DNA of 55,407 nucleotides, the filler included, from Stramenopiles sp. TOSAG23-6 (Eukaryota), in assembly GCA_900128565.1 (NCBI GenBank). It is 3 parts of 3 records of this genome, joined end to end, with 100 filler letters (N's around TTAATTAATTAA, not from the genome) between each part and the next. Parts side by side here need not be neighbours in the genome. Positions count along the whole stretch, not along the records: positions 1 to 18,413 come from LT636063.1; 2 more parts are not named here. One strand, given 5' to 3'. Positions 1-37,362 of the stretch are shown one piece after another (positions within the stretch are counted from its first letter, which is position 1; the number at the start of each line of letters is the position of its first letter). The notes under the pieces were generated by a model, which saw only the letters and a list, made by a program, of their open reading frames with translations, made no database searches and was not told the origin of the DNA. Both the position numbers and the translations under genes were made by a program.

Positions 1-61
1 CGTTAGGTACAAAATTTCGTATGAAAAATAAATTCGAAATTGAAAAAAAAATAAAACATAC
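1..61 (-). mobile_element. Introner-like intron, 5' half (contig edge)
   Basis: GTATGTTTT...CATACGAAATTTTGTACCTAACG. Confidence 0.85.
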
Positions 62-1047
62 ACTAGGAGCCATACACTCAGCTTTCTGTGTCGATTGTTT
101 ACCTGAACTATTCAATTTTTCTCCATTCTGGCATAGGCGGACTTCATAATCTCCTGGTTCTGATAGTCGAAAGGACCAGTGAGTAAGACATACTGTGAAA
201 AAATATTTTTTTGTAAAATTTTTTGTTAGGTACGAAATTTCGTACGAAAAAATAAATGTATACAAAACATTGAAAAAAAATAAAACATACGCTATGCTTT
301 ATCCATACTGAAGCTACTGCACAATTTATTGTCGATGGCTTGCTTGTCTCTGTTATATTTTGATAGACTTTTGGTTCAATTAGGATGTGTCTACTGTTGA
401 TCCACTTGGCGGCACATTGAGAGGGAATTTGTGGGACTGAGTACATGTATTGTAAAAAAAATAAATTCGAAATTAGTTAGGTACAAAATTTCGTACGAAA
501 AAAAAATAAATTTGAAATTCATCATGAAAACGTACAGCTGTGCCAATATTGACGCAGATGAAACATTATAGAAATTATTATCATCTTGTTGTGAACTATT
601 ACCCGGGATATTGAATGCTATATCTGTTTCATCCATATTTTTATGCACTTCTTGTTCAAGACGCAGTGACATTGTACCATTACGAAACACTTCTCTATTT
701 GAAATTTTCGTATGACAAGTTTTATTTCTCATTAAGGTTCCGTTAATATCGTTGCACATGGTTAATGCACCAGCTTGTTCAATGTTTTTTTTAACAGGCC
801 ATCTTGCGATAGCATCGCTATTATGACCATGCGCCACAAAGAGGCCAAGCCAAAATTGTTCATCTGGTAAATGATGATTCGGAAAATCAAATGAAGCTTT
901 AGCGACTACCTTTTCGTATTCGCACACAATTTGTCGTGATAAATCTATATCAAAGCTTTCAGTGACTACAGAGTCTAGACAACACGAAAAAACCAAAAGA
1001 AGAAATAAACAATCTAAAATATAAAATGAGGCATTTAATACTACCAT
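62..1047 (-). CDS. Secreted hypothetical protein, 3'-partial; exons 1047-536, 444-291, 187-62
   Basis: Hydrophobic N-terminus (LFLLLVFSCCL). The frame stays open across two introner-type introns and runs into a third at the contig edge. Confidence 0.6.
188..290 (-). mobile_element. Introner-like intron GT..GT (preceding exon ends GC)
   Basis: Family core; ends CACAGTAT-GT; frame stays open. Confidence 0.7.
445..535 (-). mobile_element. Introner-like intron GT..AT (exon ends CT)
   Basis: Core present; ends ACAATAC-AT; joins LAQL-YSVP. Confidence 0.8.
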
Positions 1048-1333
1048 TATTTTGATACTTTCTCCAAAAATTTACGTATACATCAGTTTAACATCTATGT
1101 GCGAAAAAAACCGTTGGTGATAAAAATGATACTACGGCAATGTGATACGATTTGTGTGACTGAACGTATCTTTCGCGATATAATTGGCGTTGAGTCGAAA
1201 AAAAAAATATGAAAAATAATGAAATAACACGATAACACGAAATAATCCTTTTTTTATTACATCCTAGTTATTTTTTTTTTGTGGATCGCAGCCATCCGAA
1301 AACAAATATGAACACTCTAGCCAGTTTGAGTTT

Positions 1334-2884
1334 TTACCCTTTTCCCTCTTTTTTTCCAAATCGAAGTTTTTTTGCTTTCTGTTTCGCTCCTATTCTCCTT
1401 TTCCTTGATGGCAACGAACTATGATACGAGTTATGTCCATTTAAAATACCAGATGGATATGGATTATGAAAAAATATTTCAAAAAAAAATCGTTAGGTAC
1501 ATAATTTCGTATGAAAAAAATTCAAAATTGAAATTAAAACATACATATATGCAATCGATACCACTCAGATTCATCTACAAAGAAATTTTCAGCCATTTTT
1601 TGCATACCTATAACCCCAATTGTAGTATAGTCTATATGTACATCAACATGTATTGTGAAAAGTATGTTTTACAGTTTGAAATTTGTTAATTTTTTTTTTT
1701 TTTTTTTTTTGTGTAAAAAAATAAACTTTCAATTAATGATTACGAACAAGGTATGGATTCTTTTTCATCGCTTTAGCCAATAACGATCCACCATCTGATC
1801 CTATAGCATTCCCATTTAGATGTAACGACCGTAAAGAAGTATTTGTTGAAATTGCTGAACAAAGGTGATGTGCTATTACAATTTTGCGAAATTTGAAATT
1901 TGTTAAGTACAAAACCTTTGCAATGTCTATGGAAAGAACTCAAAAAAACAAANAAANAAAAAAAANTGTNAGNTACAAAATTTCGTACGAAAAAAAATTG
2001 AAATTAGTGATGAGAACATACATGCATTCCTTGCTCTGTAATATTATTGCATGATAGGTCCAAAGATTTCAGTCCGCATGTAGTCACTTTGATAGCTTCA
2101 GCCAAAATTTTGACTCCACTATTTCCGATATCATTGTTATAAATACGCAGTTCTGATATATTATGAAAAAATATTTTAAATTTGAATTTTTTGTGTTTTT
2201 TGTTAGGTACAAAATTTTTTTGAAATTTTTTTTCTACTGAGATTATGGTGAAAAGGTGAAAGTCGGTGAAAGTGGTGGCGGTGCTATTGAAAACGTACAG
2301 AGGGTCTGGTTGTTTTCTAAAAGTACATTAGATAGCCTTTCCATTCCTCCTGGGCCTATGCTATTATAGGAAATATTAAGTACACCCAAGACATTATTAT
2401 GGCGTAGCATACTTGCAATGAAATCTGTTCCCGATTTACCAATTTGGTTACAATAAAGATCGAGATAAAATAAGGTTGGGTGAGGTCGCGAAAGACTCTC
2501 TGCTAAACACTTTATCCCTCTTGGGCCAAAATTGTTATGGCTTGCGCATATTTCCTTTAGAGTATTGTTCACTTTTAATACATTTGCAAGGGTTTTACCC
2601 CCTTCTGGTCCAATATGTTGGTGAGATATATCAAGCCGACTCAATACTGAGCCAAGATATGTTCTGCTGTTGTTTCTAAGAATTTTGTATTTTTCCACTA
2701 AAGGTAATTTCTGAAAAACTATGGGCTTCTTTGCCTCTTCTTTTTTGTCCTTTCCATCCTCGTCATTCTTTCCATCTTTGTCATCCTTTTCATGAGTGGT
2801 TTCTTTACCTGCTTTACCCATGGTGACAGTATTAGATTTACCTCCAATTACAGTATTTAATGCATCTATAGGAAGTGTGTTCAT
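1334..2884 (-). CDS. RI-like leucine-rich-repeat protein (NLRC3-like LRRs), 5 exons
   Basis: LxxLDLxxNxIGxxG repeats. Removing introns 2156-2298, 1868-2021, 1648-1747 and 1459-1544 restores repeat register (NQTLSELRIYNN, GMHHLCSAISTNTSLRSLHLNGNAIG). Confidence 0.85.
1459..1544 (-). mobile_element. Introner-like intron GT..AT (AT/AT duplication)
   Basis: Core present; ends CATAATCC-AT. Confidence 0.75.
1648..1747 (-). mobile_element. Degenerate introner-like intron GT..AT (exon ends TT)
   Basis: Donor GTTCGT; ends CACAATAC-AT. Confidence 0.65.
1868..2021 (-). mobile_element. Composite introner-like intron GT..AT (AT/AT) with two branch modules
   Basis: Only the distal AT restores the LRR frame. 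Confidence 0.7.
2156..2298 (-). mobile_element. Introner-like intron GT..AT (exon ends CT) with an internal insertion
   Basis: Restores NQTL-SELRIYNN. Confidence 0.8.
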
Positions 2885-3283
2885 TCTTTTGTGGACATAT
2901 TCGAAATTTTAAGCATGCGTGTAACTGTTTGTTGTACTCTTGGGCTTTTAGTCAATCATGAAAACTCCGAACAACACGAAATCCTAATTTTTTGATGCGC
3001 ATGCATTTTTGACTGGAAAATGTCGAAAATATTCAATCAAAATACGTAGTAGTAGGCCTACAAGTCAAGTGTCTATTAAACAAACAATAGAGTCTCACGA
3101 GACCTCAAAATTCTTACCATTATTATATCGTAAACTATAGTAGTGTCGCCATTTGTCTTACCAATAAATTATTTTTGTCCTTGCTAGTTTCTTAAGCAAG
3201 ACATCTTTAACTCTGTGTATTCTATATTATAATATCTAATAGTAAAGTAGCTATTGACTTAATCTTACTATTTTCTGTGCGCA

Positions 3284-6115
3284 ATGACGGATGCAGTCAA
3301 AGAGTCTCCGACAGAGGCGGTGAATGGTGATTCGGCTCTAGATGCTCGCACTAAATGTGGACGTGAACTTGAGGCAGAGGCTTCTATATTAAACTATAAG
3401 TATGATGCGGATGCATGGTCGATTTTATTCATGGAAGCTCAAAAGCTTCCGCTCAATGAAGCTGAAAGTATTTATGAGCGCTTTCTTGCTCCAGAACAAT
3501 TTCCTACTGCTGGCTTATACTGGAAGTATTACATTGAACATTGTTTGCGCGAGGAAAATTTTGAAAAAGCTAAAGCTCTACTAGAACGTAGTCTTTTGAA
3601 CTGTTTTAGTTTGGAACTTTGGAAGTTATATTTGGATTATATTAGTGCAAAAGCAGAAGTTGACATTAAAAAAGATTCTACACAAGAAAAACGCTTAAAA
3701 GTTGATGAAGAAAAACTTGCTGCGTATAAATTTGCATTGGCCAATATTGGAAGTAGTATTGATTCTCATGAAATATGGGCAGAGTACATCGCTTTTTTAA
3801 GAAGGAATGAAATTAAAAATGCAGGAGGTGACGGGGTTGGTGCGTCTTTCGGTGGATTCACGACAATGCAAGAGGTAGTCGATATTCGATCAGCTTATCA
3901 ACAGGCAGTGACTACGCCTCATAGGGATCTGGAAAAGTTATGGATAGAGTATGAATCATTTGAAAAAGCTATGCCTAACAAAAGTCTATCTCAAAAACTT
4001 ATCGAAAGTTTCACGGGAAAGTACGTTTTCAGCATACATTTCAAATTTATTGTTTTTTTTCATACGAAATTTTCATAGAAAACAGAAACAAATTTTTTTT
4101 TGTGATGACGTTTTCAGTATGAATTTCAAATGNTTTTTTTTTTTTTTTTTTAATACAAAATTTTGTACCTAACGAATGTTTTGTGTCCGAAAAAAAATAT
4201 GTTTTCACAATATATGTATGAGTCAGCAAAAGCTATTTTGAAAGAACGAAAAAAATTCTGGGATCGTCTTACCCCGAGTAAGAGTCTTCTTGCGACCCCT
4301 CCACTGCCAATGGAAACGCAATTTATAGATGTGAATGGAAATCGTAAAAACTCATCTCTAAAAAAAATGAAACAGCACAGAGCGAAACAATTGGAACAAT
4401 TTAAAATTTGGCGTGAAGTTCTTCAATTTGAATTAACAAATCCGCTTTGTTTAGAACAGGCAGAATTTCAAAAGTGTACTGTCTTATTATATGTAGGTTC
4501 TCATACTACATTTTGAATAGTTTTTTTCATACGAAATTCCGTACCTAACGATTGTTTTTTGAAATATTTTTGCATACTACATAATCAATGCCTTGCATGT
4601 TTTAGGCATTTTCCTGAAGTGTGGTATGATTATTCACAATTTGAACTTCGAGGTGGCATTCCTATTGACTCTAATTCTACATCTACAGTTGTTGGAATAG
4701 GCGGATTGTCAACACCTGAAGATTGTTCTAAAGCTGCTGTGGTTCTTGAACGTGCAACTGAGGCGTTACCAAAGTGTATAACTCTTGCCTTTGCACGCGC
4801 TGAACTTGAAGAGCAAAGGGAAGGGGGGGATATTCATAAAGTGTTTAAATCAGTCATTAGCGAACTCGAGAAAGACATTACATCTACAGAAAAAGATGTT
4901 AACCCTAACCCTAATGCAATCGATGCGAATAAAAAATCTCCTGAGAAAACCAAAAGTCCTGAAAAAACAAAACCAAATAATCTAAAAAAATACGAAGGTG
5001 ATATTGATGGAGCAGTGCTTTGTTGGATTCAATATCAACGAACTGTGAGACGTACTCAGGGCCTTGCAGCAGCACGTAAAATATTTACACGAGCACGAAA
5101 ATCTGTAAGTGGTAGTGATTATCGCATTTTTGTAAATTCTGCGCTGTTAGAACACCATGCGAATAATGAAACAAATGTAGCGATAAAGATTTTTGAGATG
5201 GGTTTAAAAAAAGGTTTTATTTCAAACCCGTTATTTGTCAAAGCCTACTTATCTTTTATTGAACCTCAAAGTGATGATAAAAATATCCGTAGTCTTTTTG
5301 AGAGATCAATCCCTCAGTTGCCTCCTGATGATCCTGCGACTGCAGTTATTTGGGCAAAATTCTTGGCATTTGAACTACGCATGGCTCGTGGTGGTGGTAC
5401 TTTAAATGCAGTGGCTAGGATATTTAAACGTTGGGCTATTGCTTATCCTGAACAAAAAGGTCTTCAAGGTTTGCTCGGTTGTGCTGTAAGAAATCATTTC
5501 TTAGGTCTTCGCCCCAGCTCCATGGATGACGTAGCATTTTTTGAAAGATCGTCACCTGCATCGGATGCTCTTGTTGGTCTTGGATTATCTTCACTCTTAG
5601 GTCTTGGTGGTGGCGACGCTTGGGGTTCTTCTTCAGGTTGGACTGTCCAAGGAGCACAGCACCGTGAAGGAGTGTTTGGTCTAAGCTCAATTGGAGCAGC
5701 TGGTATTTCATCTACTGCTACTGGACGTAGTGTTCAAGTGAACGGTAATACCAGCTCTGCCATTGATCATGGTTCTGCCGCTGCGTTGAGTAATTCTAGT
5801 GGAACTCTTGTTTTTCAACCTGGAGTTGTGCCAAAATTACCTGCAAAATTTGACTTTTTGCAACCTCTATTTGCTAAACTACCTCCACTAAGTCTCATTA
5901 TGACGCATGGATTTCTTGATGTGAATCTTTTTATACGTCATCTTCGTGAAGCTACTCTGCCGCCGAGACCCGCTGAGAGTGTAGAAATAAGTAGTAAGTC
6001 TAGTGACGATGGTACTTCTCGAAAACGAAAAAGTACGGATAATCCAGGTAAGGAAAAGGCAGCCAGTAGTAACTCGGATGTGTATCGGAGAAGAATGCGA
6101 CTAAGAACGCACTGA
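3284..6115 (+). CDS. CSTF3: Cleavage stimulation factor 77 kDa subunit (HAT-repeat, Rna14/Suf); exons 3284-4020, 4216-4492, 4583-6115
   Basis: FPTAGLYWKYYIE, ELWKLYLDY, YNQCLACFRHFPEVWYDY, AARKIFTRARK, KIFEMGLKK, NIRSLFERS, C-terminal DVYRRR. Confidence 0.9.
4021..4215 (+). mobile_element. Composite introner-like intron GT..AT (exon ends AA)
   Basis: Duplicated 5' module; joins GK-YESAK. Confidence 0.75.
4493..4582 (+). mobile_element. Introner-like intron GT..AT (AT/AT)
   Basis: Restores Y-NQCL of CstF77. Confidence 0.88.
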
Positions 6116-6339
6116 GGATTGTAAATAAAATTACTAAATCATTTGATCTGAGCCAACGCCAAGCACAGAATTAAAAAAAATAAATTACCTTAAAGATATC
6201 CACACGTGACTTTCTATTAGAACTTGTATTATGCCAAATAACTTACTATTCATTTTTATTAGAGATTTCGTCAATTCTGATGATACCAGGTACTACGGTA
6301 TGGTATACGATGTAATTTTGTTCTGTTGTGTCACAGCTC

Positions 6340-6432
6340 CCATGGCCAATCAATCCGGCGGCCGGCCAATCATTGACGTCTTCTCTCCAGGAACTGAGTT
6401 GCAACTGAGTTGCAACTGAGTTGCTGAGTTCC
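6340..6432. promoter_or_regulatory. Putative promoter: two GGCCAATCA boxes, TGACGTC, and about three copies of AACTGAGTTGC
   Basis: GC-rich patch 40-130 nt upstream of the ATG at 6474; function inferred only. Confidence 0.35.
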
Positions 6433-6473
6433 TGGCCAACTAACTTGACAGTGTGACACACATTCACTACAAA

Positions 6474-7505
6474 ATGATAATCGATGATAGAGATGATAAG
6501 ACAATTACATGCTTATGCTCAAGATGTTTCGATTCATTTCGAACTGAGTTTCAGAGGAACAATTTGAATTTTGATAAAAACACTTCTCACGGTGTTATAG
6601 AAGATTGGAGATTTGTTTTTGGACGTGGCATCAAAACTAAAGGTGGCAGAGTCGATTGCAGTAGTTTTGGTGTTACAGTATTAGTTCGTGCTTCTGCTGC
6701 ACTTTTGATGCTTTCAATTTGGTTATGGTCTACTATTTCTAGCATTAGTCATGGAAAATATGCTACTTGGTGGCTGTTTCTTACTCACTTGACCCTTACG
6801 GGACAAGTTGTTTATCATGTACTTAGTCTAATTGTAGCGTTGAAAGTTCAAAAAGTCACTTTCGTTGATGATACGCAGCGTCCAATGAAACTTCCCTTTA
6901 TTGTGAAAACTACATGGTGTCTTCAGGCTATTATTCTTCCTGCAACATTTTTTGTATTTACACTGTATTTCGGGTTTGTTTTTAAGCACAATTTAACTCT
7001 ACTAAAGTTTAGTCAACACGGCCTCAACTTCATCGTGATGGGGATAGATACATTTATATCAGGCTTCCCCTTCCTTTTAATTCATGGAATCTACTTTATA
7101 ATTTGTGCATTTTTATACCTGCTGTTGACGATTGCCGCTGCAATTGCGGGTAATGCTCCTATATATGATATCTTGGATTGGTCAAGACCATTGACGCCCG
7201 CTATTTTATGCATCTGTCTCATTTGCATAGCACTACCATTAGTAAATACCGGTTGTTGGTGGATTTGTCGTGGACGTGCTTTATATATAGACACTGGAAT
7301 GATGAGCAATGATGAAGAGATTGATCAAACTTTAATATCGAAGCCTAGCGATGTCTGTTGTTGTATTTCATCGTTTGCTCATCCTATTGATTCTAGAGAT
7401 TCTTTTCTTGTAGATGAAAAAAATTCCATGACAAGGAATGTTCAATTACATGATTCATCATCACAGTATGATGTTATTAAAATTGGGGATACACATATGG
7501 TTTAA
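6474..7505 (+). CDS. Multi-pass membrane protein, rolling stone / FAR-17a-AIG1-like
   Basis: About six hydrophobic helices; WWLFLTHLT, QHGLN..MGID, PIYDILDWSRP motifs; intronless. Confidence 0.75.
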   Translation: MIIDDRDDKTITCLCSRCFDSFRTEFQRNNLNFDKNTSHGVIEDWRFVFGRGIKTKGGRVDCSSFGVTVLVRASAALLMLSIWLWSTISSISHGKYATWWLFLTHLTLTGQVVYHVLSLIVALKVQKVTFVDDTQRPMKLPFIVKTTWCLQAIILPATFFVFTLYFGFVFKHNLTLLKFSQHGLNFIVMGIDTFISGFPFLLIHGIYFIICAFLYLLLTIAAAIAGNAPIYDILDWSRPLTPAILCICLICIALPLVNTGCWWICRGRALYIDTGMMSNDEEIDQTLISKPSDVCCCISSFAHPIDSRDSFLVDEKNSMTRNVQLHDSSSQYDVIKIGDTHMV

Positions 7506-7657
7506 TCTAAAAGTAGCTTGTATAAATATATATTGCATACGATGCAAACTACAAATATAAAATTTACAATTATTTTGTTATCTCTTTTTGATCTTGAATT
7601 AAATTTATTTGTTTTAATCAAATTTCGTACCAAACGAATTTTGAATGTTAACATAAA

Positions 7658-9454
7658 TTAATTAAGAGCTGCCGGTATGGCCAATAACTGTGGCATGAAC
7701 CCAAGTTCTTCTACTGGAATTCCATAGGCTAACATTTTCGTTTCATAATGCTCAATCATTTGGTTATGTTTTCCAATCAAATCACCTAAAGATTGTTGTA
7801 AATCTCGAACTGTCATATTCTTCATTTCGATGACGTCATCCCACTTACGACTAACTTTGGAATTTACGGCAGAATCAATATTCGCATGTGACAGAAGCTC
7901 TCCAAGTTGGGCATGTATTGTAGGAAAATATTTTTAGAAAAAAATTGTTAGGTACAAAATTTTTATAAAAAAAAAATAAATTTGAAATTGATGATGAAAA
8001 CGTACATCTTTTCGTTCCAGTTCATTTTGCATTGCTTGGAGTTTCTTTTCAATAAGTAAATTCTTAAAACCACATTTTTGTTTAATTGAATACACCGACT
8101 TTTGAAATTCCGTGTACGTATTGCGAAAAATATTGCAAAAAAAAATAGTTAGGTACAAAATTGTGTACGAAAAAAAAACTAAATTGAAATTGAAAAAAAA
8201 CCTACACAACTCGTTACGTTCTTCTTCTAAATCTTCCAATTTTTGTGATTTAACTTCAAATTCCCATTGCATATTTTTAAGTTTCCCATCAAGAGTGAGA
8301 AGAACTTCTTTAGTAGCGTCAAGATTAGCTTTATCTTTTTCGTATTCGGCAAGTATTGTAAAAAAATATTTAAAAAAAAAAATGTTAGATGTGGATTTTC
8401 ATACCAAAAAAAAATTGAAATTCAATTTTGAAACGCACCAATTCTTTTCGTAATGTTTCGACATCAGCCAATGCACATTTTAGAGGTTCGTACATTCGCT
8501 TGTTTTCTAAAGTAATTTTAGTCATCTTTTTCTGATCAATTCGCTCTTTCTTTTTGAGTTCGACAACTTCTTCTTTTAGGGTTTTGATCAAATCAAGATT
8601 GTTGTGTACTTTGGAAAAATATTTCAAAAAAAAAACACTTAAATTTGTTAGGTACAAAATTTCGTACGAAAAAAAATCGAATTTGAAAAAAAACTAAAAC
8701 ATACGTGAGTTATATCATGGTAATAGGTTTTAATATCTGAAAACGCTTTTTCGTGTTGTTTCATTATTTGAGAGCAAAATTCATTTTTACGTTCTTCTAA
8801 CCTTGTCTTTTCAACCTTTCTTTGTAATTCCATAGTTCGGCGTACAGATTTCATTTTTTTTTCATACTTGAGTTGAGTTTCTTTAGCGCGTCGCTCAAAC
8901 TCATGCCTGAGTTTCCAAATATTTTGATCATGAGTTTGTTTCAAAGATCGAAGGCAGGCCATATGTGAAAGATCCATTTCTCTATATTTTTTCTTAAACT
9001 TTCGACGATCGTCTTTAACTTGTCCTTCGTTGATTCTATTATCGTTTTCGATGAAACTCACTTGACTCTCCTGAGAATGTTTTGCGTTGGTAACTTCATT
9101 TTGATGTTCATATAAAAGATGTTTGACAGACTGTTTGTACAGTTTGATGTCTATTTGATGTTTTTCTTCCATATCTTGCAGTTCCCTTGCCTTATGTCTG
9201 CGATCATTCTTTTTGTCTTCGAGATTCTTTTTCTCAACAATCCAAAAGTAATTAAGTTGGTCTCGTTGCTGTTGAAACTGATCAAACTCCATTGTCTCAT
9301 GGTCAATACTTCGCTGAACTGCCTTTGCCCGTTTTATTAGATCCAAACGACGCTGCTCGTCGGGAGATGCCACAGCACCCTTTGGTGCTGCCCCTCCTGC
9401 AGCGGCCGCTTTCTTCTTTGCCTTTCCCTTTTTCTTTCCTTTCTTTTTACCCAT
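7658..9454 (-). CDS. GAS8: Dynein regulatory complex subunit 4 (GAS8/trypanin); exons 9454-8705, 8603-8439, 8350-8206, 8115-8006, 7912-7658
   Basis: [85 protein letters not shown]. Confidence 0.93.
7913..8005 (-). mobile_element. Introner-like intron GT..AT (AT/AT)
   Basis: Restores LERKD-AQL of GAS8. Confidence 0.9.
8116..8205 (-). mobile_element. Introner-like intron GT..GT (GT/GT)
   Basis: Restores ERNEL-Y-TEF of GAS8. Confidence 0.88.
8351..8438 (-). mobile_element. Introner-like intron GT..TT (exon ends TG)
   Basis: Restores LRKEL-AEYEKDK. Confidence 0.82.
8604..8704 (-). mobile_element. Introner-like intron GT..AC (AC/AC)
   Basis: Restores [10 protein letters not shown]. Confidence 0.9.
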
Positions 9455-9669
9455 TGTTGTTGCAAGTATACTTAGAAAGAGCAAGTATGAAAATGTGAAA
9501 CTTTCACCGTTACAAATTTATGAAACGGATTTTCATCAAAAAAAAACGAAAGAAAGTGAATTTGTGATTGTGAATTTATTTGTGATCGATCTCGAAAAAT
9601 TTGACAGTTCGAGTTCAACTTCAAGGACACTGCATAAATTTTAGATAATATTAATTCATTAGGCTTAAA

Positions 9670-11012
9670 ATGTCAGCACACCGGCTTTCTCGAATAAAAG
9701 AGGGCTTGTCTATGATAGATGGTGAAATAGATGTTTCTTCAAGTACTTGCATAGATATTTCTCCACCAAAAACAACCGTGGAGGACGAATTAGTCTCAAT
9801 TCTCCAATTACAATTAAAGGAAGCAAAATTAGAAACTTTGCTGTTGAAGAAGTCGCACGAGAAAATATCCCGCGATGTGAAAAATTTTACAGATGGTGCT
9901 GAAATTGTAGCTGCCGAACGCGAAATGCTTACAACATTAAAGGCTCAAGTAAAGGCATTATGGAAGGAAAAGACTGAAACTGCTATAAAGACGAAAGCCA
10001 TAATTGATGAGAAGCAAAAAAAGAATGAGGCAATTAGCAAGGCACTAAAGGATGTGAGTAATAAATTACAAAATTGCCATCAGGACATTACAACTATGCG
10101 TGAAAGATGCAGTGCATTTAATTCTCTGCAAGCAAGTTTTGAATCAAAATCTTCAGAGTTAAACAGAGTGACTTCTGAGCTTACAATTTGCTCATCTCAA
10201 CGCAAAGCTCTCAAGCGTTTAGCTCGCTCTCAAAGAGACGATTTGAATAGTTTAAGGTATGATGTTACTAGGTATGTTGCAGTTCAAGAAAGATATGAAT
10301 CACTGCTTATGTATGGTGAAGATGAAGCTAGTCGTGCAATTGAACTCGCCGGTTTGACAAAAGAACTTGCTTTACTTGAAAAACTACACGATAAAAAGGA
10401 GAATTTTGAGGAAAAAAAAAAACGACAAAAATGGAGAAAATATCTGCGGATCGATCCTGCGCCAAATTTTCATATGAATTCTCCAATTGTGAAAGAATTG
10501 TTAGAAAGTTGGACAACAGATAAACGCCGTCAAGGACTTTTGTATGTTATATCCAATTTTATTTCAAATTTATTTATATTATTTTTTCTGTGAAAATTTT
10601 GTACCTAACGAAATTTTTTATCTAAAAAAAAATATATATATATTTTTCAAAATACTGGCATCAGTGGTTAGTTAACGTAATGTCATTTGATGTTGATTGC
10701 AAAGAAGATCAAGATAATATAAACATGAACAATAGATATAACAACCATAATACTTTCACTCAGCAAATTAAATTTGGGACATCACCAGCAGTAAATAATA
10801 CTATTATAAATTCATCCATTCCAATCAACATTCCAATCGAATTATCTCGATTAGCTCCTGAAGTTAGCGATGGTTTTCTAGCATTAATTATACCCATGAT
10901 TAGAAATAAAATTGGAGATAGATTGATCGTTCAAGTACGAGAGAAGGAAGAAACTCGTACAGATATCAGAATATCCATAAGAGATTCTGTAATAAAAGCT
11001 ACATTAAAATAA
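9670..11012 (+). CDS. Coiled-coil protein with a small C-terminal globular domain; exons 9670-10541, 10658-11012
   Basis: Two ORFs join in frame across intron 10542-10657. Confidence 0.7.
10542..10657 (+). mobile_element. Introner-like intron GT..TG (exon ends TT)
   Basis: Core present; ends CAAAATAC-TG; joins GLL-HQWL in frame. Confidence 0.75.
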
Positions 11013-11202
11013 TAAATAAAGAAATTTTGAGAATTGTTTTTTCATACGAAATTTTGTACCTAACAATTTTTTTTTTCGGTAAAAAAATTTTGTAATAAAA
11101 ACTACATTAAAATAATAAAAAAAAACAAGTCATAGCAAATCTATGGCAAAAGTTATAACATAAACAAATGAAAAAGTGTTCATGTGAAAACAAATATCTT
11201 TT

Positions 11203-12353
11203 TTATTTTTTTTTCTTTTGTTTTAATTTATTTCTTTCCCATTTTTGTAATTTTGGCTTTTGGGGGTTTTCACCAATTTTAGAATTTATTGTGAAATGTG
11301 ATTTATACTCTTTTGGTGAGTTAGAATAAATATGTAGGCGATGAAATCCATTTTTTTTAACGACAGCACTATGCAGGCGCTCACAGCCAATTTCATTAAT
11401 TTGCTCAAAGTCGATATGTATTTTACGAAAATATTTAAAAAAAAATCTTGTTAAGGTACAAAATTTTCATACAAAAAGAAAAACAAAGTAAATTTAAATT
11501 TTTGAAATTGAACAAATATTTGTTAGGTACAAAATTTCGTATGAAAAAAAATACATGCAAATTTTCGAGCCAAGAATGCTTCTGCAAGCAGACAGATAAA
11601 GCTTTTGCACCATCGGCACCTATATGATTACCACAGAGATGCAGTTCTGTGAGTGTTGTATTTGTGGTGGCCAAAATAGTTGCTATTTTTTTTATACCTG
11701 CTGGTGAAATATGTATNGTGAAAAANTATTTTTTTTTTNCCGAAAAAAAAAATTATTAGGTACGAAATTTGGTACGAAAAAAAAATTAAAATTTTGGAAT
11801 TGAAAACTACATTATTATGGCAAAGTTCTAATATTTTTAATGAAGTATTTGTTTCCAGTGTGGCTCCAAAATCTGAAGCAGCAGCATCACCAATATTATT
11901 TCCATGTAGTAGTAAAACCTCTAGCGTATTATTTCTAGATTTTAGCACATCAGATAGTTTCAAAGATCCTTTTTCATTTAACTGGTTATATCTCAAGTCA
12001 AGCAATTTGAGGGACTTATTATGGTGTAAAGCATCACTAAAAAATGTAGCCCCTGCGGTACCAATACTACACCCATATAATCGTAATTCAGTAAGTGTTT
12101 TGTTTTCTTCTAAAGCGTTGGCTAAAGCCTTTGATCCACTTGCGCCAATTTTATTATATGACAAGTCCATGTGAACCAATGTAGTGTTTGTTTTGAGTGC
12201 TAAAAAAAGATTGGTCAAGACTTGGGCATCCAAGTATCGATGACGTAAGTCAAGCTCTGTAAGATTCGACGGAGTCGTTTTCAATTCTTCTAGAAAGTCA
12301 TTCGATGAGGGAACTATTGTTTCTGGGGATGCAAGCGCGAAGCAAGTAGTCAT
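11203..12353 (-). CDS. RI-like leucine-rich-repeat protein; exons 12353-11811, 11710-11555, 11415-11203
   Basis: NTTLxxLxLxxNxIGxxGAxxL repeats continue across two introns (LCHNN|ISPAG, LENLH|IDFEQ). Confidence 0.85.
11416..11554 (-). mobile_element. Composite introner-like intron GT..AT (AT/AT), two cores, perfect GTATTTT/AAAATAC termini
   Basis: Two TACGAAATTTTGTACC-like cores; frame restored. Confidence 0.82.
11711..11810 (-). mobile_element. Introner-like intron GT..AT (AT/AT)
   Basis: Restores LCHNN-ISPAG. Confidence 0.85.
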
Positions 12354-12676
12354 TTATATATCTTTGTGATTAGGTTCACTGTATAGATTTTGTGCTCCAA
12401 GTGTGTGAGCAATTTTTTAGATTTGACTTGCTTGACACTTTGACAGTTACTGAGTTTCAAAAATTAAAAACGAGATATTTTGTTACCAAATTCTGTATAC
12501 ATAAATTCAAAAGCTTCAAAATGCTGTTATTCGCGGTCAAAAACGTCAAAACGACTATTTGTGTCTAAAACTAGCTTTATGTACTTGCTCCACTTGCTCT
12601 TTATTGTCTTTGGTTCCCTATTTCTTATCACAATTAAATTTCTCAAAAGTTTAAGCAAACAAAATATTTCAAAACA

Positions 12677-14287
12677 ATGAACAACTCTATGATAATCATA
12701 CTATGCATGGCTCTTTCATATGGCTATACTGAAGGTGCCTCGCTTCGCGCAGCCGCTACTCCTGAACCAAAGTACATGGATAATATCCAAGTCTTGTTTA
12801 AAGGGTACGACATTTTATACGGGAATCCTATGCCTACTGGATTTATTCCAATGGACCCAGGATTAAGAAAACAAATATTTGGAGCTGTGTATGATCCAAA
12901 CCACCCCGAATGGGTTTCGGGTGATAAACTCTACTATCAGCCTAAAGGCACTACTATTTCTTCCTGTGCTGGTTCTTGTGTTAGCACTTTTTCATCGACG
13001 AGAATTGCCGGGACAAAGTCGTATTCGGCGTCTCTTTCTACAAAGGTTTCAGCTGAAGGGGAAGGCTGGGGAGCTAAATTTTCAGCGTCAACAGATTACA
13101 AAAATGTAAAAGATGGATCATCGGCGCGGGATTCTTTTTTTACTCAATCCGAAATGAGCTGCTGCATATACTATGCGGATATTGATTATTACACCCCTCC
13201 TGACCTGAGTGATGACTTTAAAGAAGGACTTAAAACCTTGACCGAAACATACATGAAAGAACCATATCTTCATTTTATTAAAACATTTGGTACACATTAC
13301 GTTAGTCAAATTACTATGGGCGCAATGTTTGGACAACAGTCAGAGATTACAGCAGATGCGTGGAGTGCAATGGAATCTTCGGGCTTGAATATTGAAACTG
13401 CTGCAAATTACTCTGGTGCTCTAGTTGCTGGGTCTGCAAGTGCCACGAGCGATTCCCAAAAAAAACATGCTGAAACGTTTAACAAGTACTCAACAAAACA
13501 AAGAATGTATAGTCTTGGTGCCAAGCCTCCAAGTGATGGTAAAACTTCAACCTGGGCTGAACAGGCTGTCGAGAGCCCAGCACCACTTAAGTACAATTTG
13601 GTTCAAATCGATGAGCTTGTCAAAGATGAGGCAATTAAAGCAAATTTAAAGAAAGCGCTAAAAGATTATTGTCATAATTTGATGATCGACGGTCTCATTG
13701 ATAGTTGTGATGGTCCTGGAGAAGACAAGCCCTACCCAAAAATTATAAAAAAACGAACATGGACCAAAGTAAGTTTTCACTACTTCAAAAGTATTTCATT
13801 TTGAATTTACCTAACCTAAAGGTCTTGTACTTAACAAATTTCAAATTTCTTATTTTTCACAATACAGTGGGGCACAGGAAATTTCAATGGAGGTGAAAAT
13901 AGTGTTCATGAATGTCCAGAAGGTCACTTTATCAAGGAATTGAAATTTAAAGAGCAAAATGGATACGGATTAGTCAATCTTCATGGAAAATGCTCTGATG
14001 GTAAAACCGAATTTGATGCAACAAGCAACTTCAGTGGGGGATGGAACAGTAAAATTACATGTTCTGAAGGGTTTAGACAAGTTACGCCGAGGTATCAAGA
14101 TGGGTATGGCGTGATCAATGCCAAATCATTTTGCGTTGATGATGCTCTTCAGTCCACTTCAAACGGGAATATGAAGGGAAACTGGAAATTCGATCTTAAA
14201 TGCGATGAGGGTCAGCAGGTTGTTGGGTTTCAGACTCGTGATCAATGGGGATATGGAATTGTTAATCTTAGATATGAATGTGCATAA
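12677..14287 (+). CDS. Secreted MACPF/perforin-like protein with a 3-repeat C-terminal beta domain; exons 12677-13768, 13868-14287
   Basis: Signal peptide; GYDILYGNP; MACPF signature FIKTFGTHYV...MGAMFG; QxGYGxVN three times in the C-terminus. Confidence 0.88.
13769..13867 (+). mobile_element. Diverged family member with canonical GT..AG
   Basis: GTAAGT...TTGTACTTAAC...TTTTCACAATAC-AG. Confidence 0.85.
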
Positions 14288-14557
14288 TTTTAATAATGTA
14301 TACATTAATAAAAATAGAAAGTTATAGCATTATTATTATTATAGATAATCCAATTTAAATAAGTTAATCTTAGATATGAGTGTGCATAATTGTAATTATT
14401 CTTGATTTTGAGGTAAACTCACAATGAATTAGGGTTACTAGGGGGAAGATGTTTTTGGGAATAGTGGAAAAAATATGGAAAAAATAAAAATTAAAAGCTT
14501 TAGATTTTCTGGAAATTTTGGGGATTTTTCATTTTTTATTTTTGCACATGTAGTAAG

Positions 14558-15196
14558 TCACGGCATCGCTTTCCACTGAGTCAGGCAGTTCAACATAGCT
14601 AGAATGTTGATCGAGGCGCGTAGAATTGCAGGGTCGTCTGACTTGACCACCTCAGCACCGATAGCAGTGCCAACACAATCATTCCCCCTCATGATCCGAC
14701 TTTCTTGTGGCGGCAAGCAAAAGCAGCCCATACACAGGGTCAAAATCAAAAATGGCAGAAGCCAAGGCTGGCTGGGAGCAACAATGGACAGGACAGGTTG
14801 GTCATCGGCCACTAATTCGCCCACTGAGCCTCCACATGTTAAGGCCCTTCTTTCAAATGTGTTCATGCCTTGTGTGTTCCACCTCGCCTGGACTAGTCCA
14901 AAGCTGTCCCCCGCGCTTGCATTGATGGAGCCTTTGGAGACCTTGTCCGACCAAACGACGCTCCCGTCAGGAAGAGCAGCAGTCACCACCGCGTGATTGC
15001 TGCCTTTCCACTCATACCTCAGTATTGCAATTTCTTCGCCATCAGCGTTCAGAATGGAATACGCGTAATAATATCTAAGGCCGGCTGGCTTTTCCTCTTT
15101 CTTCCTCTTTACACGGATCTCACCGCCTGCGGTAGACAAGGAACTCGCGAGTTTTTGCTCTGGTGAAATAAATTTTGGAGCTCCGGCAGCTTCCAT
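14558..15196 (-). CDS. Hypothetical protein, possibly scramblase/tubby-fold-like, with a Cys-rich hydrophobic segment
   Basis: Intronless ORF, visibly more GC-rich than its neighbours; WLLPFLILTLCMGCFCLPP. The fold call is a guess. Confidence 0.55.
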   Translation of the reverse strand: MEAAGAPKFISPEQKLASSLSTAGGEIRVKRKKEEKPAGLRYYYAYSILNADGEEIAILRYEWKGSNHAVVTAALPDGSVVWSDKVSKGSINASAGDSFGLVQARWNTQGMNTFERRALTCGGSVGELVADDQPVLSIVAPSQPWLLPFLILTLCMGCFCLPPQESRIMRGNDCVGTAIGAEVVKSDDPAILRASINILAMLNCLTQWKAMP

Positions 15197-15666
15197 GGCA
15201 ATTGCAGAGACCTCGCGTTCGGTGGACTGCCTGTCAGGCAGCACACGGTTGCGGCCACTGGCAAGGATGATTGTTTGTTATCTTTGCAAAATGAATTTAC
15301 TTGAACTTCTTCTCTTTTGGGAGAAGAAAAACAGCGTTTTTTGGTGTATGTTTGTTAATTTAAAAACTTAAAAAACAGTAACTTTGCAGGAATAAAGTTT
15401 TAGAGTACTTTACAGTAAAGTACTGTAACTCAGCTCTAATATTAAGATATTTATACCAGTATCTTTTTTTCTGCCCACCCACGCGACGAAAATATAGATT
15501 AAAAAAACCGACTGAAATAAATTTTGGCGAAATTTTTCCATTTTTTCATCAGATCAGTCCAGTCAGACATCAGACAGTTTCAATATTTCTTGTGCAAAGA
15601 TCTTACATAAGCCTAAACCGATACTCTATTAGACTATTATACTATAACTACAAAAACATAGAAAAC

Positions 15667-17753
15667 ATGGGCGCTGCTGCATCCCTTACATCTGAGAAGA
15701 GTAAGGCAGTTGCGCAACAACTCCAAGGAGAATGTGGAGATAAAGTTATAGATCTTGGCCGCCTCAAAGTTCTTGAAGCTTGGTGGCATTCAGAGCAAAA
15801 TAATGAAGAAGTAGCTTACAACTTGGTCAAAGATAGTTACATGAAACTACCCAGTTCTGATGAACTTGACGACATTGACGAGGCACAGATAAGAGTAGAA
15901 CTCAGGGGTCTTCCCGACGCAATGGATACTGCATGTCACGTATATAATAAATGGCCTCTAGTAATCGACTCAACAGGAAATGCAAATAGATATCTCAAGT
16001 ATAATGGTGCGTATATCATGGCTAACTTACCCAGCGAAGTTCAGGGCGAAAACTTACGCAAAATATTCATTGCATGTCTTAAACGAGGAAATACAATGAT
16101 TTTAAATTTCGGAGATAGTGACTGCTCAACATTGACGGATATATTTGATCCTGAATTTTTTCCCGCTACAATTTTAGATCGGAGATGTTGTTTTGAGAAG
16201 AGAGTTTGGCAGCCTCTCTTAAAGCCCGATACCGACGGAGATTGTGATTTCTTCTTTCCTAACGAGGGTTTCAAACTTGTCATTGTTACAGAAAACACCA
16301 ATCCAACGACTGACTTTGATTCTTTACTTAAACGTGTCAATATAGGAAATAAAGATTCAGAGTCAAATGGAAATTGCGATAATGAAGATCAAGTTGAAGT
16401 TCTCCTTGGTGCAAAAGAAGTGATTCGCAATAGCGAAGATTTGACAGAATTTGCTTTTGATGGTGACTTGGATGGTGTTAAAGATCTTATAGAAAAGGGA
16501 TATTTTATGGATTCTGTTGATGCACACGATCATTCTGCTCTATCCGAGGCCGCTGCTCAAGGTCATGCTCATGTCGTTGAATATTTGTTGAGTCTTGGAG
16601 CAAATCCAAATAAGTGCAATGACAAAGGGAGATCTCCACTTTATCGGGCTGCTTTCAATGGTCATCTGCCAGTCGTACAATTTCTATTGGAATCTGGTGC
16701 AGATCCTGACAAGCATGATGAAGGCAGTGGTGAAATGCCAATGGATGCCTGTAATTTATATACATTTTTATAGCTACATTTTTTTGAAATGATTGAATGC
16801 ACAAGATTTTTATACTAATTTTATGATTCTTAACTTATATATAAATAACCTAAACAGGTACCGATGAGGCAACTCAAAATTTGCTCTCTTCTTGGGATCG
16901 GGAGAAAACTAAATCATTACTTATCAAACGCGAGGAAGCAATTCAATTGGCCGCTGAAAGTCGTTTGAAAACTGCGGCAGAACGTGAACTATACGCTCGA
17001 GGTAAGATACGGGATGAATTAGTCAAGTATTGTCAAGATGGGGAAAAAACTGCCGTTGAGGAATTACTGAATCGGATGGCTGAAGAAGCAGAAGAGTGTA
17101 GTGGAAGACCAACTGGTACAGCACAGTGTCGGGATCCAAGAGGGAATACACTACTTGCTGTGTCTGCATGGAAAGGTCATATAGAGATTGTTGAAATGTT
17201 ACTCACTAAATATAAGACACTAGATCCTGGTGATGGTACGGGTTCAATGTTTGGTGATCCAGATAAATACATGAGAAAAGTTTGGCGTGTTGATGTGAAT
17301 GCTCAAGATCAAAAAGGATGGACTCCCATTCAGGTGGCGGTCTTTCATAAACATGTAAATATTACACGATTATTACTTGAACATGGAGCTGATCCATCCC
17401 GGAAAAATTCGTATGGTAAAGATGCATTTAGTCTAGCACAAGTGGAAACACCTCCGAATATTAAATTAATGCGATGGTATGACCACGAATTATTTAAAAA
17501 AGATATGGAAGAAAAAAATAACTACAAAGAAAGTGAATGTACACTTCTTCTCAATGAATGGGCAAGAACAAAACGAGCCGCGGCGAATACACTCGGAGCC
17601 GAAAAAGCTGCGACAGAAATTAAATCTATAGAAAAAAAGTCTGCTGAAGTGAGCAACGATAATCCAAAGGTACAAAAAGTGAAAAAGAAAAATTCTACAA
17701 AACCAACTCCAAAGGGAAAGACAAGAAAAAAAAAGAAGAGGAAAAAAAAGTGA
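15667..17753 (+). CDS. Ankyrin-repeat protein, IQANK1-like; exons 15667-16750, 16858-17753
   Basis: SALSEAAAQGH, GRSPLYRAAFNGHL, GWTPIQVAV ankyrin repeats; KWPLVIDSTG domain; MGAAAS myristoylation-like start. Confidence 0.85.
16751..16857 (+). other. Ordinary GT-AG spliceosomal intron, not of the introner family
   Basis: GTAATT...TACTAAT...AAACAG; restores MDAC-TDE; lacks the CGTACGAAATTTTGTACCTAAC core. Confidence 0.85.
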
Positions 17754-18032
17754 AGATTTTTTACTATAAAAAAAAATACAAACCTCATACAATGGTCCAT
17801 TCCTCACTATCTGAAACGAGGACATACTATATAGTGTTGTGCATATATACGAGATCTATCTGAAAATTAGATAGGCACAAATGGTACGAAATTACGAAAT
17901 CTAAAAAAGTCTCATTTCGTACAACAATGCACGAAATCTTAAAAAAATATTATTATACGTACAACAATACACAGAAGTGTAAATCTTAAAGATTAAATAA
18001 AACAACTACATCAATATAGTGCTTATCCTTGC

Positions 18033-18303
18033 TTACACAGAAGCGCAAATATTTTTACTATTCAATTTCTGTACATTTTCCATTACAGCAGATAATGGCC
18101 GAACACGAATTCCAGTGGATATTTTATCCATCACAGCATTTGGATAAGCAAAAAATGGTCCAAACCTAGCTTTAGCAATCGCTCCCATAAAAACAGATAT
18201 CATCGGGAAATATTTCTTACCTGGTTTCAACTGAGTGTAAGCTGAGCCATACGATTTCCCATTAATATAAAAACTTACATCTCCACTACAATTTCCTTTA
18301 TTC
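18033..18303 (-). CDS. Last exon of a SPRY-domain protein, ASH2L-like (5'-partial)
   Basis: FYINGKSYGSAY...YFPMISVF...FGPFFAYP resembles the ASH2L SPRY C-terminus. Confidence 0.65.
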
Positions 18304-18411
18304 ATGTATTTTGGAAAAATATTTCAAAAAAAATCTAAAAAAAATTGTTAGGTACAAAATTTTTATAAAAAAAAAATTCGATTTTTTTGTTAAAAAAAAA
18401 ATAAAACATAC
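18304..18411 (-). mobile_element. Introner-like intron GT..AT (AT/AT) at contig end
   Basis: Full consensus; the upstream exon is missing, so frame cannot be tested. Confidence 0.8.
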
Positions 18412-18413
18412 AT

Positions 18414-37021: not shown

Positions 37022-37115
37022 TTTCAAAAAAAATTTTGAAAATTTGTTAGGTACAAAATTTCGTACGAAAAAAAAAAATTCAATTTCAAAATTTAAAAAA
37101 AAAAATAAAACATAC

Positions 37116-37326
37116 ATTTTATGCGTAGTTGACCATGAAACATATAATGGATAGATATTATGGAGCAAACCTGTTCCTTGCACCATACCACCTGAATTTG
37201 TTGTATACTTATCGACGAGATCGACTCCAAATGGCATATATTGTGGAACAATATTTCGAAATTTTTTTTACCAAAAAAAATTGTTAGGTACAAAATTTTT
37301 TTTTTCGTAAAAAAAAAAAAAAAAAA

Positions 37327-37362
<36 letters not shown>

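Follow-up and report, generated by a model that had tools for sequence, protein, structure and literature searches.

Origin and excision of the GAS8/DRC4 introns

What sets the 3′ end of an intron that does not finish in AG, and where do its last two bases come from? This question is raised by a GAS8/DRC4 gene that lies on the minus strand at 7658–9451 of a 55,407-nucleotide stretch of DNA deposited as Stramenopiles sp. TOSAG23-6 (GCA_900128565.1), here called the window, which joins three parts of three records with 100 filler Ns between them (positions 1–18,413 are from LT636063.1). Each of the gene's four introns runs from GT to TAC and then carries two further bases that vary from intron to intron. 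An initial annotation, made from the sequence alone, had proposed that these two bases are a 2-bp target-site duplication, which copies the last bases of the preceding exon and acts as the splice site. Our analysis revealed that the four introns belong to a family of similar introns and that the RNA lacks the repeated element together with the next two bases; a target-site duplication is the best, if unproven, reading of those bases.

The gene comprises exons at 9451–8705, 8603–8439, 8350–8206, 8115–8006 and 7912–7661, followed by the stop codon. Exon 1 (9451–8705) aligned to Chlamydomonas DRC4 with E=1e-50, above the mammalian (161 bits), Tetrahymena (124 bits) and kinetoplastid homologs. When translated separately, the five exons corresponded to residues 4–241, 242–296, 297–344, 346–381 and 382–457 of the Chlamydomonas protein with no gap or overlap, while residue 345 is covered by a split Tyr codon. 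All four junctions are scarless at the protein level, with zero residues gained or lost relative to Chlamydomonas DRC4, in keeping with the scarless insertion that had been proposed.

The four introns are copies of one sequence, and their junctions were re-read exactly as first annotated: CAC|GT..TAC-AC| at 8604–8704 (exon end AC, exact match), TTG|GT..TAC-TT| at 8351–8438 (exon end TG, one base matched), TGT|GT..TAC-GT| at 8116–8205 (exon end GT, exact match) and GAT|GT..TAC-AT| at 7913–8005 (exon end AT, exact match). They start with GTAYGT, except for GTGCGT in the most diverged copy (8351–8438), and continue with a middle block that contains TACCTAAC after a 12-base palindrome, T-rich tracts, a 3′ block ending in AATAC, and the two variable bases.

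RNA joints and the position of the cuts

Five marine metatranscriptome runs share 10–15% of the words of window positions 1–10000, and the contigs of four of them were placed on 1974–11716. Three of these runs, X1, X3 and X5 (marine polyA metatranscriptomes, represented by assembled contigs with 0–1 differences per piece), contain joints at the GAS8 introns. Joints that lack 7912–8004 (where the cut may shift to the right by 0–3 bases) and 8350–8437 (shift of 0–1) were present in contigs of all three runs, and a joint that lacks 8116–8205 (shift of 0–2) in contigs of X1 and X3. In record 4 of X1, a run of 166 letters links 8349 to 8705, which places the fourth joint at 8603/8705. At all four introns, what is missing from the RNA is the element together with the two bases after it. 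A fifth intron, at 4021–4215, is also consistent with the RNA: a contig piece of X5 starts at 4216, and the depth of X5 is 3.38 at both 3986 and 4276 and 0 at 4030.

When an exon closes with the same dinucleotide as the intron after it, three placements of the cuts yield the same mRNA, one of which, for AT, is an AT-AC-like reading. The joint at 8351–8438 permits only GT..TT or TG..TG, and therefore it is the downstream dinucleotide that is removed; at 4021–4215 (AA/AT), the RNA is likewise consistent with removal of the 3′ copy. These joints agree with the proposal that splicing removes the element plus one duplicate, and identify the 3′ copy as the one that is lost where the two can be distinguished (8351–8438). 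The AT-AC reading, in which the upstream dinucleotide and the element would be removed, fits the matched pairs and is ruled out at 8351–8438 by the RNA joint.

Given a GT start, the RNA verifies AT, GT, TT and AC as acceptors, and the use of these non-AG acceptors follows from the joints together with the residue-for-residue colinearity with Chlamydomonas DRC4. The intron at 8604–8704 has an AG at −6/−5, which lies five bases before the junction and is bypassed in the RNA. An AG lies between the last CTRAY motif and the 3′ end in eight of the 31 family introns described below, RNA support for its bypass being confined to 8604–8704. The bypassed AG, and the finding that 27 of the 31 acceptors are non-AG, bear out the claim that no AG is needed. 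As a rule for the cut, the "first TAC after the branch motif" fails at 7913–8005, where an earlier TAC is skipped.

Summed contig depth over element copies (7824–8798 and 10749–11716) was in the hundreds to thousands, up to 8742, as compared with 2–10 over exons, and many contigs exit the window at the element edges of these regions. This makes the family a very abundant one in the polyA RNA of the seawater samples, where it comes from many other loci.

A family of similar introns in unrelated genes

Intron boundaries were set by the register of the family together with a reading-frame check, giving 31 unique introns in the window, where introns within an inverted duplication were counted once. 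A 12-base core was matched 54 times with at most two mismatches, compared with 6.1 times in shuffled sequences (standard deviation 2.7, maximum 15), and none of 100 shuffles reached 54. With a profile derived from 16 complete copies, nhmmer gave 42 matches at E≤1e-3 and a lowest E-value of 2e-16. The host genes are unrelated and encode leucine-rich repeat (LRR) proteins, a CstF77/Suf homolog, MACPF, ARM-repeat, IP3-receptor-like, ABC-F and UTP15 proteins, and a Cid1-like nucleotidyltransferase; in all of them, the family copies have the same orientation as the gene. An Rfam scan of the window gave zero matches.

The family introns are about 100 bases long (range 86–195 nucleotides). Their 5′ site is strongly conserved (G at +1 in 30/31, T at +2 in 31/31, G at +5 in 29/31 and T at +6 in 31/31), as is the 3′ block AATAC at −7 to −3, each position of which is conserved in 24–29 of 31. 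With G at +1 in 30/31 and C at −3 in 24/31, the element runs GT...TAC, consistent with the GT...AC limits first assigned to it. A CTRAY motif occurs in all 31 introns at a median of 43 nucleotides from the 3′ end, usually inside TACCTAAC, and the median T fraction between this motif and the 3′ end is 0.47. The final dinucleotide is AT in 20 introns, AG in four, TT in three, GT in two, and AC and TG in one each. Intron phases are mixed and the lengths modulo 3 are spread 12/10/9, as expected for insertion that is blind to the reading frame. The frame was open across the element plus two bases in 20 of 22 introns; of the other two, one has Ns upstream and the other is that at 54644–54753. Ten further introns, among them the re-fixed ones at 4493–4582 and 54644–54753, were read by eye, and nine were open; the tenth was re-placed at 1868.

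Just upstream of the TACCTAAC block, most copies carry a perfect palindrome of 12 bases centered on CGTACG (e.g. 8658–8680, minus strand), and some minimum-energy folds pair the 5′ end of the intron (GUAUG or GUACG) with the palindrome's CGUAC.

The yeast-like 5′ site, the CTRAY motif, the T-rich sequence and the weak folds together make the major spliceosome more likely than an endonuclease guided by structure. U12-type introns, the substrates of the minor spliceosome, are defined by RTATCCTT at the 5′ site and, near the 3′ end, by a branch site resembling TCCTTAAC. The family does not belong to this class, as ruled out by its +5 G (29/31), its +6 T (31/31) and the median distance of 43 nucleotides between CTRAY and the 3′ end. 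An intron outside the family at 16751–16857 (plus strand), in an ankyrin-repeat gene, is GT..AG with a TACTAAT branch motif and has none of the family blocks, and therefore canonical and family-type introns coexist.

Match between the exon end and the intron end

In 16 of the 31 introns, the preceding exon and the intron finish in one and the same dinucleotide (13 AT/AT, plus GT/GT, AC/AC and TT/TT); the two dinucleotides agree at one base in 13 introns and at neither in two. These numbers reproduce, within one intron, the 16 exact matches of 32 counted initially, with all but two of the rest agreeing at one base. The exon-end counts were likewise recovered: AT precedes 16 of the 31 introns (16 of 32 before) and TT four, and the final exon base is T in 23 (24 of 32 before). 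Of the seven rare acceptors (GT twice, TT three times, AC and TG), all agree with the exon end at one base or more, as had been noted, and the additional GTT|GT..TAC-TT| junction was located at 53630–53732. All four AG acceptors are one change away from their exon end.

As a null model, the acceptors were shuffled among the introns, which keeps both base compositions. Across the 31 introns of the window, the 16 exact matches exceeded the shuffled mean of 10.8 (p=0.003), so that the association goes beyond a shared AT preference, a prerequisite of the duplication as first proposed. At least one base was matched in 29/31 (24.5 expected, p=0.003), and the three exact matches other than AT compare with 0.52 expected (p=0.008). 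We further applied the per-offset test for locus-specific matches used in the introner literature, at twelve offsets (−6 to −1 and +1 to +6). The match was pronounced at offset −2 (23/31 vs. 16.4, ratio 1.41, p=0.0005) and weak at offset −1 (21/31 vs. 18.3, p=0.08, when the intron at 1868–2021 is taken as AG; 22/31, p=0.047, when it is taken as AT/AT), and offsets −6 to −3 and +1 to +6 showed no excess (ratios 0.78–1.19). Registers for a 3-bp duplication, which would extend to the intron's G plus the next exon's first base or to the C of TAC, were rejected, offsets +1 and −3 being without excess. The signal stayed when the intron at 1868–2021 was dropped, and a strict set of 25 introns that involve no choice of boundary gave p=0.018 for exact matches and p=0.002 for offset −2. 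The pairs GT/GT, AC/AC and TT/TT are direct repeats rather than inverted ones, which is informative because AT is its own reverse complement.

These findings suggest an introner-like family of short elements that has spread through genes in sense orientation, a reading that we hold with moderate confidence, for a source that is probably a protist, an AT-rich, flagellated marine eukaryote. Each copy brings its own GTAYGT 5′ site, CTRAY branch-like motif, T-rich tracts and 3′ block ending in AATAC, and its insertion, presumably at the DNA level, would duplicate 2 bp of the target with a preference for AT/NT. The transcript is cut at the first G of the element and two bases beyond TAC, probably by the major spliceosome, so that the intron equals the element with the two bases that follow it; the acceptor can accordingly be AT, AC, GT, TT, TG or AG, and removal of the element with the downstream copy would restore the original frame without an AG. 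As to how the 3′ cut is placed, recognition of the AATAC block, possibly together with GUA/UAC pairing, is a conjecture. The wider idea that the cut is set by position, two bases past AATAC, at any dinucleotide and past nearby AGs, perhaps with GUA(U)/(A)UAC pairing, and that permissive 3′ splice-site recognition of the kind studied to date in Fritillaria arose independently in a protist, is offered only tentatively and is more doubtful than not.

Observations that weigh against a duplication

A number of observations count against the proposed 2-bp duplication or limit the RNA evidence for excision, and are gathered here. Fifteen of the 31 introns lack an exact match, and seven of the mismatches are of the form x/AT, which is also expected if AT were carried by the element. 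Because AT is self-complementary, the 13 AT/AT pairs do not discriminate between a duplication and a target preference for AT together with an AT brought by the element. The introns at 38560–38679 and 54418–54515 are high-scoring, well-conserved copies in which neither base is matched. Moreover, A at −2 (25/31) and T at −1 (24/31, or 25/31 with the intron at 1868–2021 as AT) are conserved like the neighboring positions of the element. The sample is small, and the four GAS8 introns are the discovery set behind the hypothesis; when they were removed (n=27), exact matches were 13 vs. 10.9 (p=0.12), while offset −2 (p=0.017) and matches of at least one base (p=0.007) remained in excess. The expectation that the youngest copies match best found no support when profile score was compared with match class (Mann–Whitney p=0.22), matching copies being not clearly closer to the profile: median scores were 36.0 bits for exact (n=15), 33.9 for one-base (n=14) and 40.0 for unmatched copies (n=2), with the intron at 1868–2021 counted as AG.

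The element itself also lacks several marks of a DNA transposon. Its termini are inverted only over GTA(Y)/(R)TAC, 3–4 bases, and terminal inverted repeats of at least six nucleotides were not found; such repeats are absent from some introner families in the excerpts of PMC9860276. No transposase domain was detected in the 20 open reading frames (ORFs) scanned, and no filled/empty pair was present between the arms of the inverted duplication, which carry the same introns. Searches for extra copies with a 19-base core yielded three metagenome loci that match the profile only around that word and, in genome collections, one locus on a Bacteroidales metagenome-assembled genome contig, which was not profile-scanned; these are regarded as chance matches to the 19-mer, and none was found in viral contigs. 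Regarding the RNA, all joints come from a single study, contigs of run X2, from a second study, contained none of the four GAS8 joints, and the support consists of assembled contigs of low depth (3–7), from which splicing efficiency is not readable. Finally, for the intron at 54644–54753, the reading frame allows only an end at a block that closes with TCA-AT, not one at TAC plus two.

It is plausible that the mismatches reflect drift of the intronic pair, or selection towards A at −2 (AT or AG), after insertion. We conclude that, of the duplication first proposed, the locus-specific match at −2 stands (p=0.0005), while 15 of 31 pairs are inexact and no empty site was found; target-site duplication is thus the best reading of the match at −2/−1, derived from the sequence and unproven.

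Alternative explanations

Several other origins could produce part of this pattern. The intron itself (GT...TACAT) may have been mobile through an RNA route (reverse splicing, reverse transcription and recombination) with a preference for sites after AT or T and no duplication, in which case the rare acceptors would be mutated ATs whose resemblance to the exon end is due to chance. The predominance of AT acceptors (20/31), the element-like conservation of −2/−1, the seven x/AT mismatches, the exclusive sense orientation, the lack of clearly inverted termini and the absence of transposases from the 20 scanned ORFs would all suit such a route. In the excerpts of Gozashti 2022 (PMC9860276), it is further cautioned that matches across introns cannot tell duplication from target preference, and fungal introners without both features have been read as RNA-based. 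We nevertheless consider the RNA route unlikely, since the match at offset −2 is locus-specific (p=0.0005) and persists without the GAS8 introns (p=0.017), three exact pairs other than AT were found where 0.52 were expected (p=0.008), and five of the six acceptors that do not start with A share their first base with the exon. The same direct-repeat statistics apply if the two-base repeat is real and no transposase took part, element DNA (e.g. reverse-transcribed or extrachromosomal) having been captured at staggered breaks whose fill-in duplicated the overhang. Short direct repeats at new introns of Daphnia have been attributed to break repair. The lack of clear inverted termini and of a transposase in the scanned ORFs is compatible with such capture, as are the composite and partial copies (4021–4215, 11416–11554 and 1868–2021, and 11031–11091, which is flanked by a 28-base direct repeat); however, the constant repeat length and the strong AT/NT preference better fit an enzyme with a defined stagger, and full-length copies with exact ends predominate, which makes break capture quite improbable.

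The mode of excision can be questioned as well. In non-spliceosomal excision, as proposed for euglenid and hemistasiid introns, pairing of the GUA and UAC ends would present a two-base stagger to an endonuclease and a ligase, and this could account for a cut that is offset by two bases from the terminal pairing and indifferent to the last two bases; the ends were indeed paired in the minimum-energy fold of seven of the 21 introns folded (of 31). This reading is given little credence, as GTAYGT, CTRAY and T tracts are strong in all 31 introns, the end pairing spans 3–5 bp within weak folds (−5.5 to −14.5 kcal/mol), the ends are unpaired in 14/21, and position −6 (A in 26/31) does not vary along with +4, where T occurs in 17 and C in 10 of 31. 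The most conserved parts of the family are blocks that resemble splice signals, which could also be expected of ordinary old introns that share an unusual splice consensus and involve nothing mobile. That explanation is very hard to sustain: the similarity extends over all of the roughly 90 bases and takes in the middle as well (nhmmer E-values as low as 2e-16), and the non-family intron at 16751–16857 is GT..AG without the family blocks.

Relation to known intron families

Comparison with excerpts of the literature revealed that neither a duplicated target that serves as a splice site nor a non-AG acceptor is new, since they have been published for Fritillaria, Chrysochromulina and Amoebophrya; what is distinct here is the combination of a conventional GT 5′ site with a two-base, sequence-free acceptor. 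In the tunicate Fritillaria borealis, as excerpted, a duplicated TAC closes both the exon and the intron and so forms a non-AG acceptor (PMC11282704, PMC13326754). Its introns, derived from miniature inverted-repeat transposable elements, are alike in their origin from short repeated elements, in the retention of a T-rich tract, in the persistence of rare canonical introns and in 3′ ends that are mostly non-AG with AT and AC common (here 27/31, four of them RNA-verified). They differ, in the same excerpts, in a 5′ end that is also non-canonical (AG/AC, AG/AT), whereas GT is present in 30/31 here, and in a YAY/TAC triplet repeat with inverted terminal repeats, whereas here two bases vary and TAC lies within the element. 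A YAY triplet precedes eight of the 31 introns and forms the last three intron bases of 19 (the intron at 1868–2021 taken as AG). The host here is protist-like, DRC4 matching Chlamydomonas best and a DUF4116 protein being present, although this assignment is weak.

Excerpts on the introners of Chrysochromulina describe an element that carries the 5′ site while a 4-bp duplication provides the 3′ site (Gozashti 2022, PMC9860276), and Huff 2016, as cited in a review, describes introners of Micromonas and Aureococcus, the duplicated target supplying a splice site in Micromonas. To the extent covered by these accounts, such introners resemble the present family in that one splice site is borne by the element and the other comes from the duplicated target, in being scarless, sense-oriented and gene-enriched, and in the same test of locus-specific matches. 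Of the features by which introners are recognized in Gozashti 2022, similar introns in unrelated genes, removal from mRNA and a locus-specific match between 5′ flank and 3′ end were found here, and terminal inverted repeats of at least six nucleotides were not. In the excerpted parts of PMC9860276, however, the core splice bases are GY/AG, tying insertion to AG targets, whereas here the duplicate need not be AG and upstream AGs are skipped.

The introner elements of Amoebophrya, according to excerpts of Farhat 2021 (PMC7789003), have direct repeats of 3–5 nucleotides and inverted repeats of 8–20 nucleotides and form hairpins. They likewise come from a marine protist and are repeated, non-canonical introns with direct repeats that overlap the exon/intron boundary; by the same account they have no conserved terminal dinucleotides, U1 went undetected and the GC content of the genome is higher, whereas here GT is conserved and structure is weak (PMC7789003). 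Euglenid and hemistasiid introns, as excerpted from PMC11282704 and PMC12621601, likewise have boundaries with short direct repeats and ends that pair over a short stretch with an offset. They differ in being without GT-AG or a pyrimidine tract, in strong end pairing and in the formation of circles in Euglena, as opposed to the 5′ GT, CTRAY and T tracts seen here (PMC11282704, PMC12621601). Membership in the euglenid type was rejected on the basis of GT in 30/31, the presence of T tracts and the pairing of ends in only 7/21 folds, and the descriptions of diplonemid and Amoebophrya introns (GC-rich ends, no GT) do not fit. Our literature search retrieved no description of a GT...TAC+2 intron family, which the supplementary lists of PMC9860276 and PMC12130899 may hold.

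Individual introns and other features of the window

Outside GAS8, exact AT/AT pairs on the minus strand were observed at 1459–1544 (where the 3′ block ends in TCC), 1868–2021 (a two-copy composite whose end was chosen from three in-frame options, favored by a 28-residue LRR period), 11416–11554 (a composite), 11711–11810, 18304–18411 (with its upstream exon lost in Ns), 37236–37391, 38115–38266 and 39428–39518. On the plus strand, they were observed at 4493–4582, 50285–50373 (with an alternative in-frame end three bases earlier), 50452–50554 (the best match to the family profile) and 55302–55406, one base before the window ends. The exact TT/TT match at 53630–53732 is also on the plus strand. 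One base is matched, with exon end and intron end given in this order, in the minus-strand introns at 188–290 (GC/GT, found by nhmmer with its frame open and its 3′ block ending in TAT), 445–535 (CT/AT), 2156–2298 (CT/AT, 3′ block ending in TAT), 51110–51223 (AT/AG) and 51832–51933 (GG/AG), and in the plus-strand introns at 4021–4215 (AA/AT, a composite of a 5′ half copy and a full copy, frame open), 10542–10657 (TT/TG), 13769–13867 (AA/AG, a decayed relative with 5.3 bits to the family profile), 21554–21644 (AT/TT), 49436–49547 (AT/AG), 54644–54753 (TT/AT, TAC plus two being out of frame) and 55050–55154 (TT/AT). The two unmatched introns are GC/AT at 38560–38679 (minus strand; its frame was checked on the twin at 47872–47991) and TC/AT at 54418–54515 (plus strand).

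Left out of this set were the second-arm twins of the introns at 37236–37391, 38115–38266, 38560–38679 and 39428–39518, and the first-arm twin of that at 49436–49547, which is broken by Ns. The copy at 1–61, whose 3′ end lies beyond the window, those at 43000–43064 and 43125–43189, whose 3′ halves are replaced by the palindrome junction, the partial copies at 7589–7641 and 11031–11091, the intron starting at 39996 and the non-family GT-AG intron at 16751–16857 were also left out.

The composite introns at 4021–4215, 11416–11554 and 1868–2021 consist of one and a half or two copies, which suggests nested or tandem insertion or partial duplication. The partial element at 11031–11091 (profile positions 28–88) lies between 28-base direct repeats with one mismatch (window 10985–11125). 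This repeat contains the stop codon of a plus-strand gene ending at 11012, and deletion of the first repeat together with the element would restore a near-identical C-terminus. The intron at 39824–39996 (minus strand), in an IP3-receptor-like gene, has a family-like interior, and its in-frame ends are AAAG| or TAC| and not TAC plus two. Judged by frame and register, that at 37236–37391 starts with ATATGT, not GTATGT (A at +1), and ends with AT; it is either an AT-AT intron, part of a dead gene or the product of a base error.

An inverted duplication occupies 37022–49529 with its center near 43095: 39455–43093 is 100% identical to 46734–43096, and 37022–39509 is 98.9% identical to 49529–47042, the arms differing only by a poly-A/T stretch in one intron. 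It turns inside an element copy (43000–43064 and 43125–43189), and one arm holds a gap of 307 Ns (46735–47041). The duplication has the look of a chimera from assembly or amplification, not of a biological feature. Long Asn/Thr-rich low-complexity runs, typical of very AT-rich genomes, occur in coding ORFs at 38700–39300 and 37500–37900 (both minus strand). A protein with four DUF4116 repeats (E=3e-42) is encoded at 40813–42054 (minus strand); together with the best match of DRC4 to Chlamydomonas, it hints at a protist rather than an animal host.

Implications

The origin of new introns, and of the bursts of gain confined to a few lineages, is an open question, for which introners are the best-supported source. 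Where the duplicated target has to contain AG (or GT), the sites at which they can land harmlessly are restricted. If the proposed mechanism is true, an acceptor defined as the two bases after the element's own end would lift this limit, any genic site would become a harmless landing place if the cut is set by position, and the splicing machinery of this organism must tolerate any 3′ dinucleotide. The family would place one more lineage, seemingly a marine protist, alongside Fritillaria, Amoebophrya and the euglenozoans. Because its introns keep a conventional 5′ site and branch site, the choice of the 3′ site can be studied here in isolation, which should interest researchers of both intron gain and 3′ splice-site choice. 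Gene finders that demand AG will, in turn, mis-annotate most of this organism's genes.

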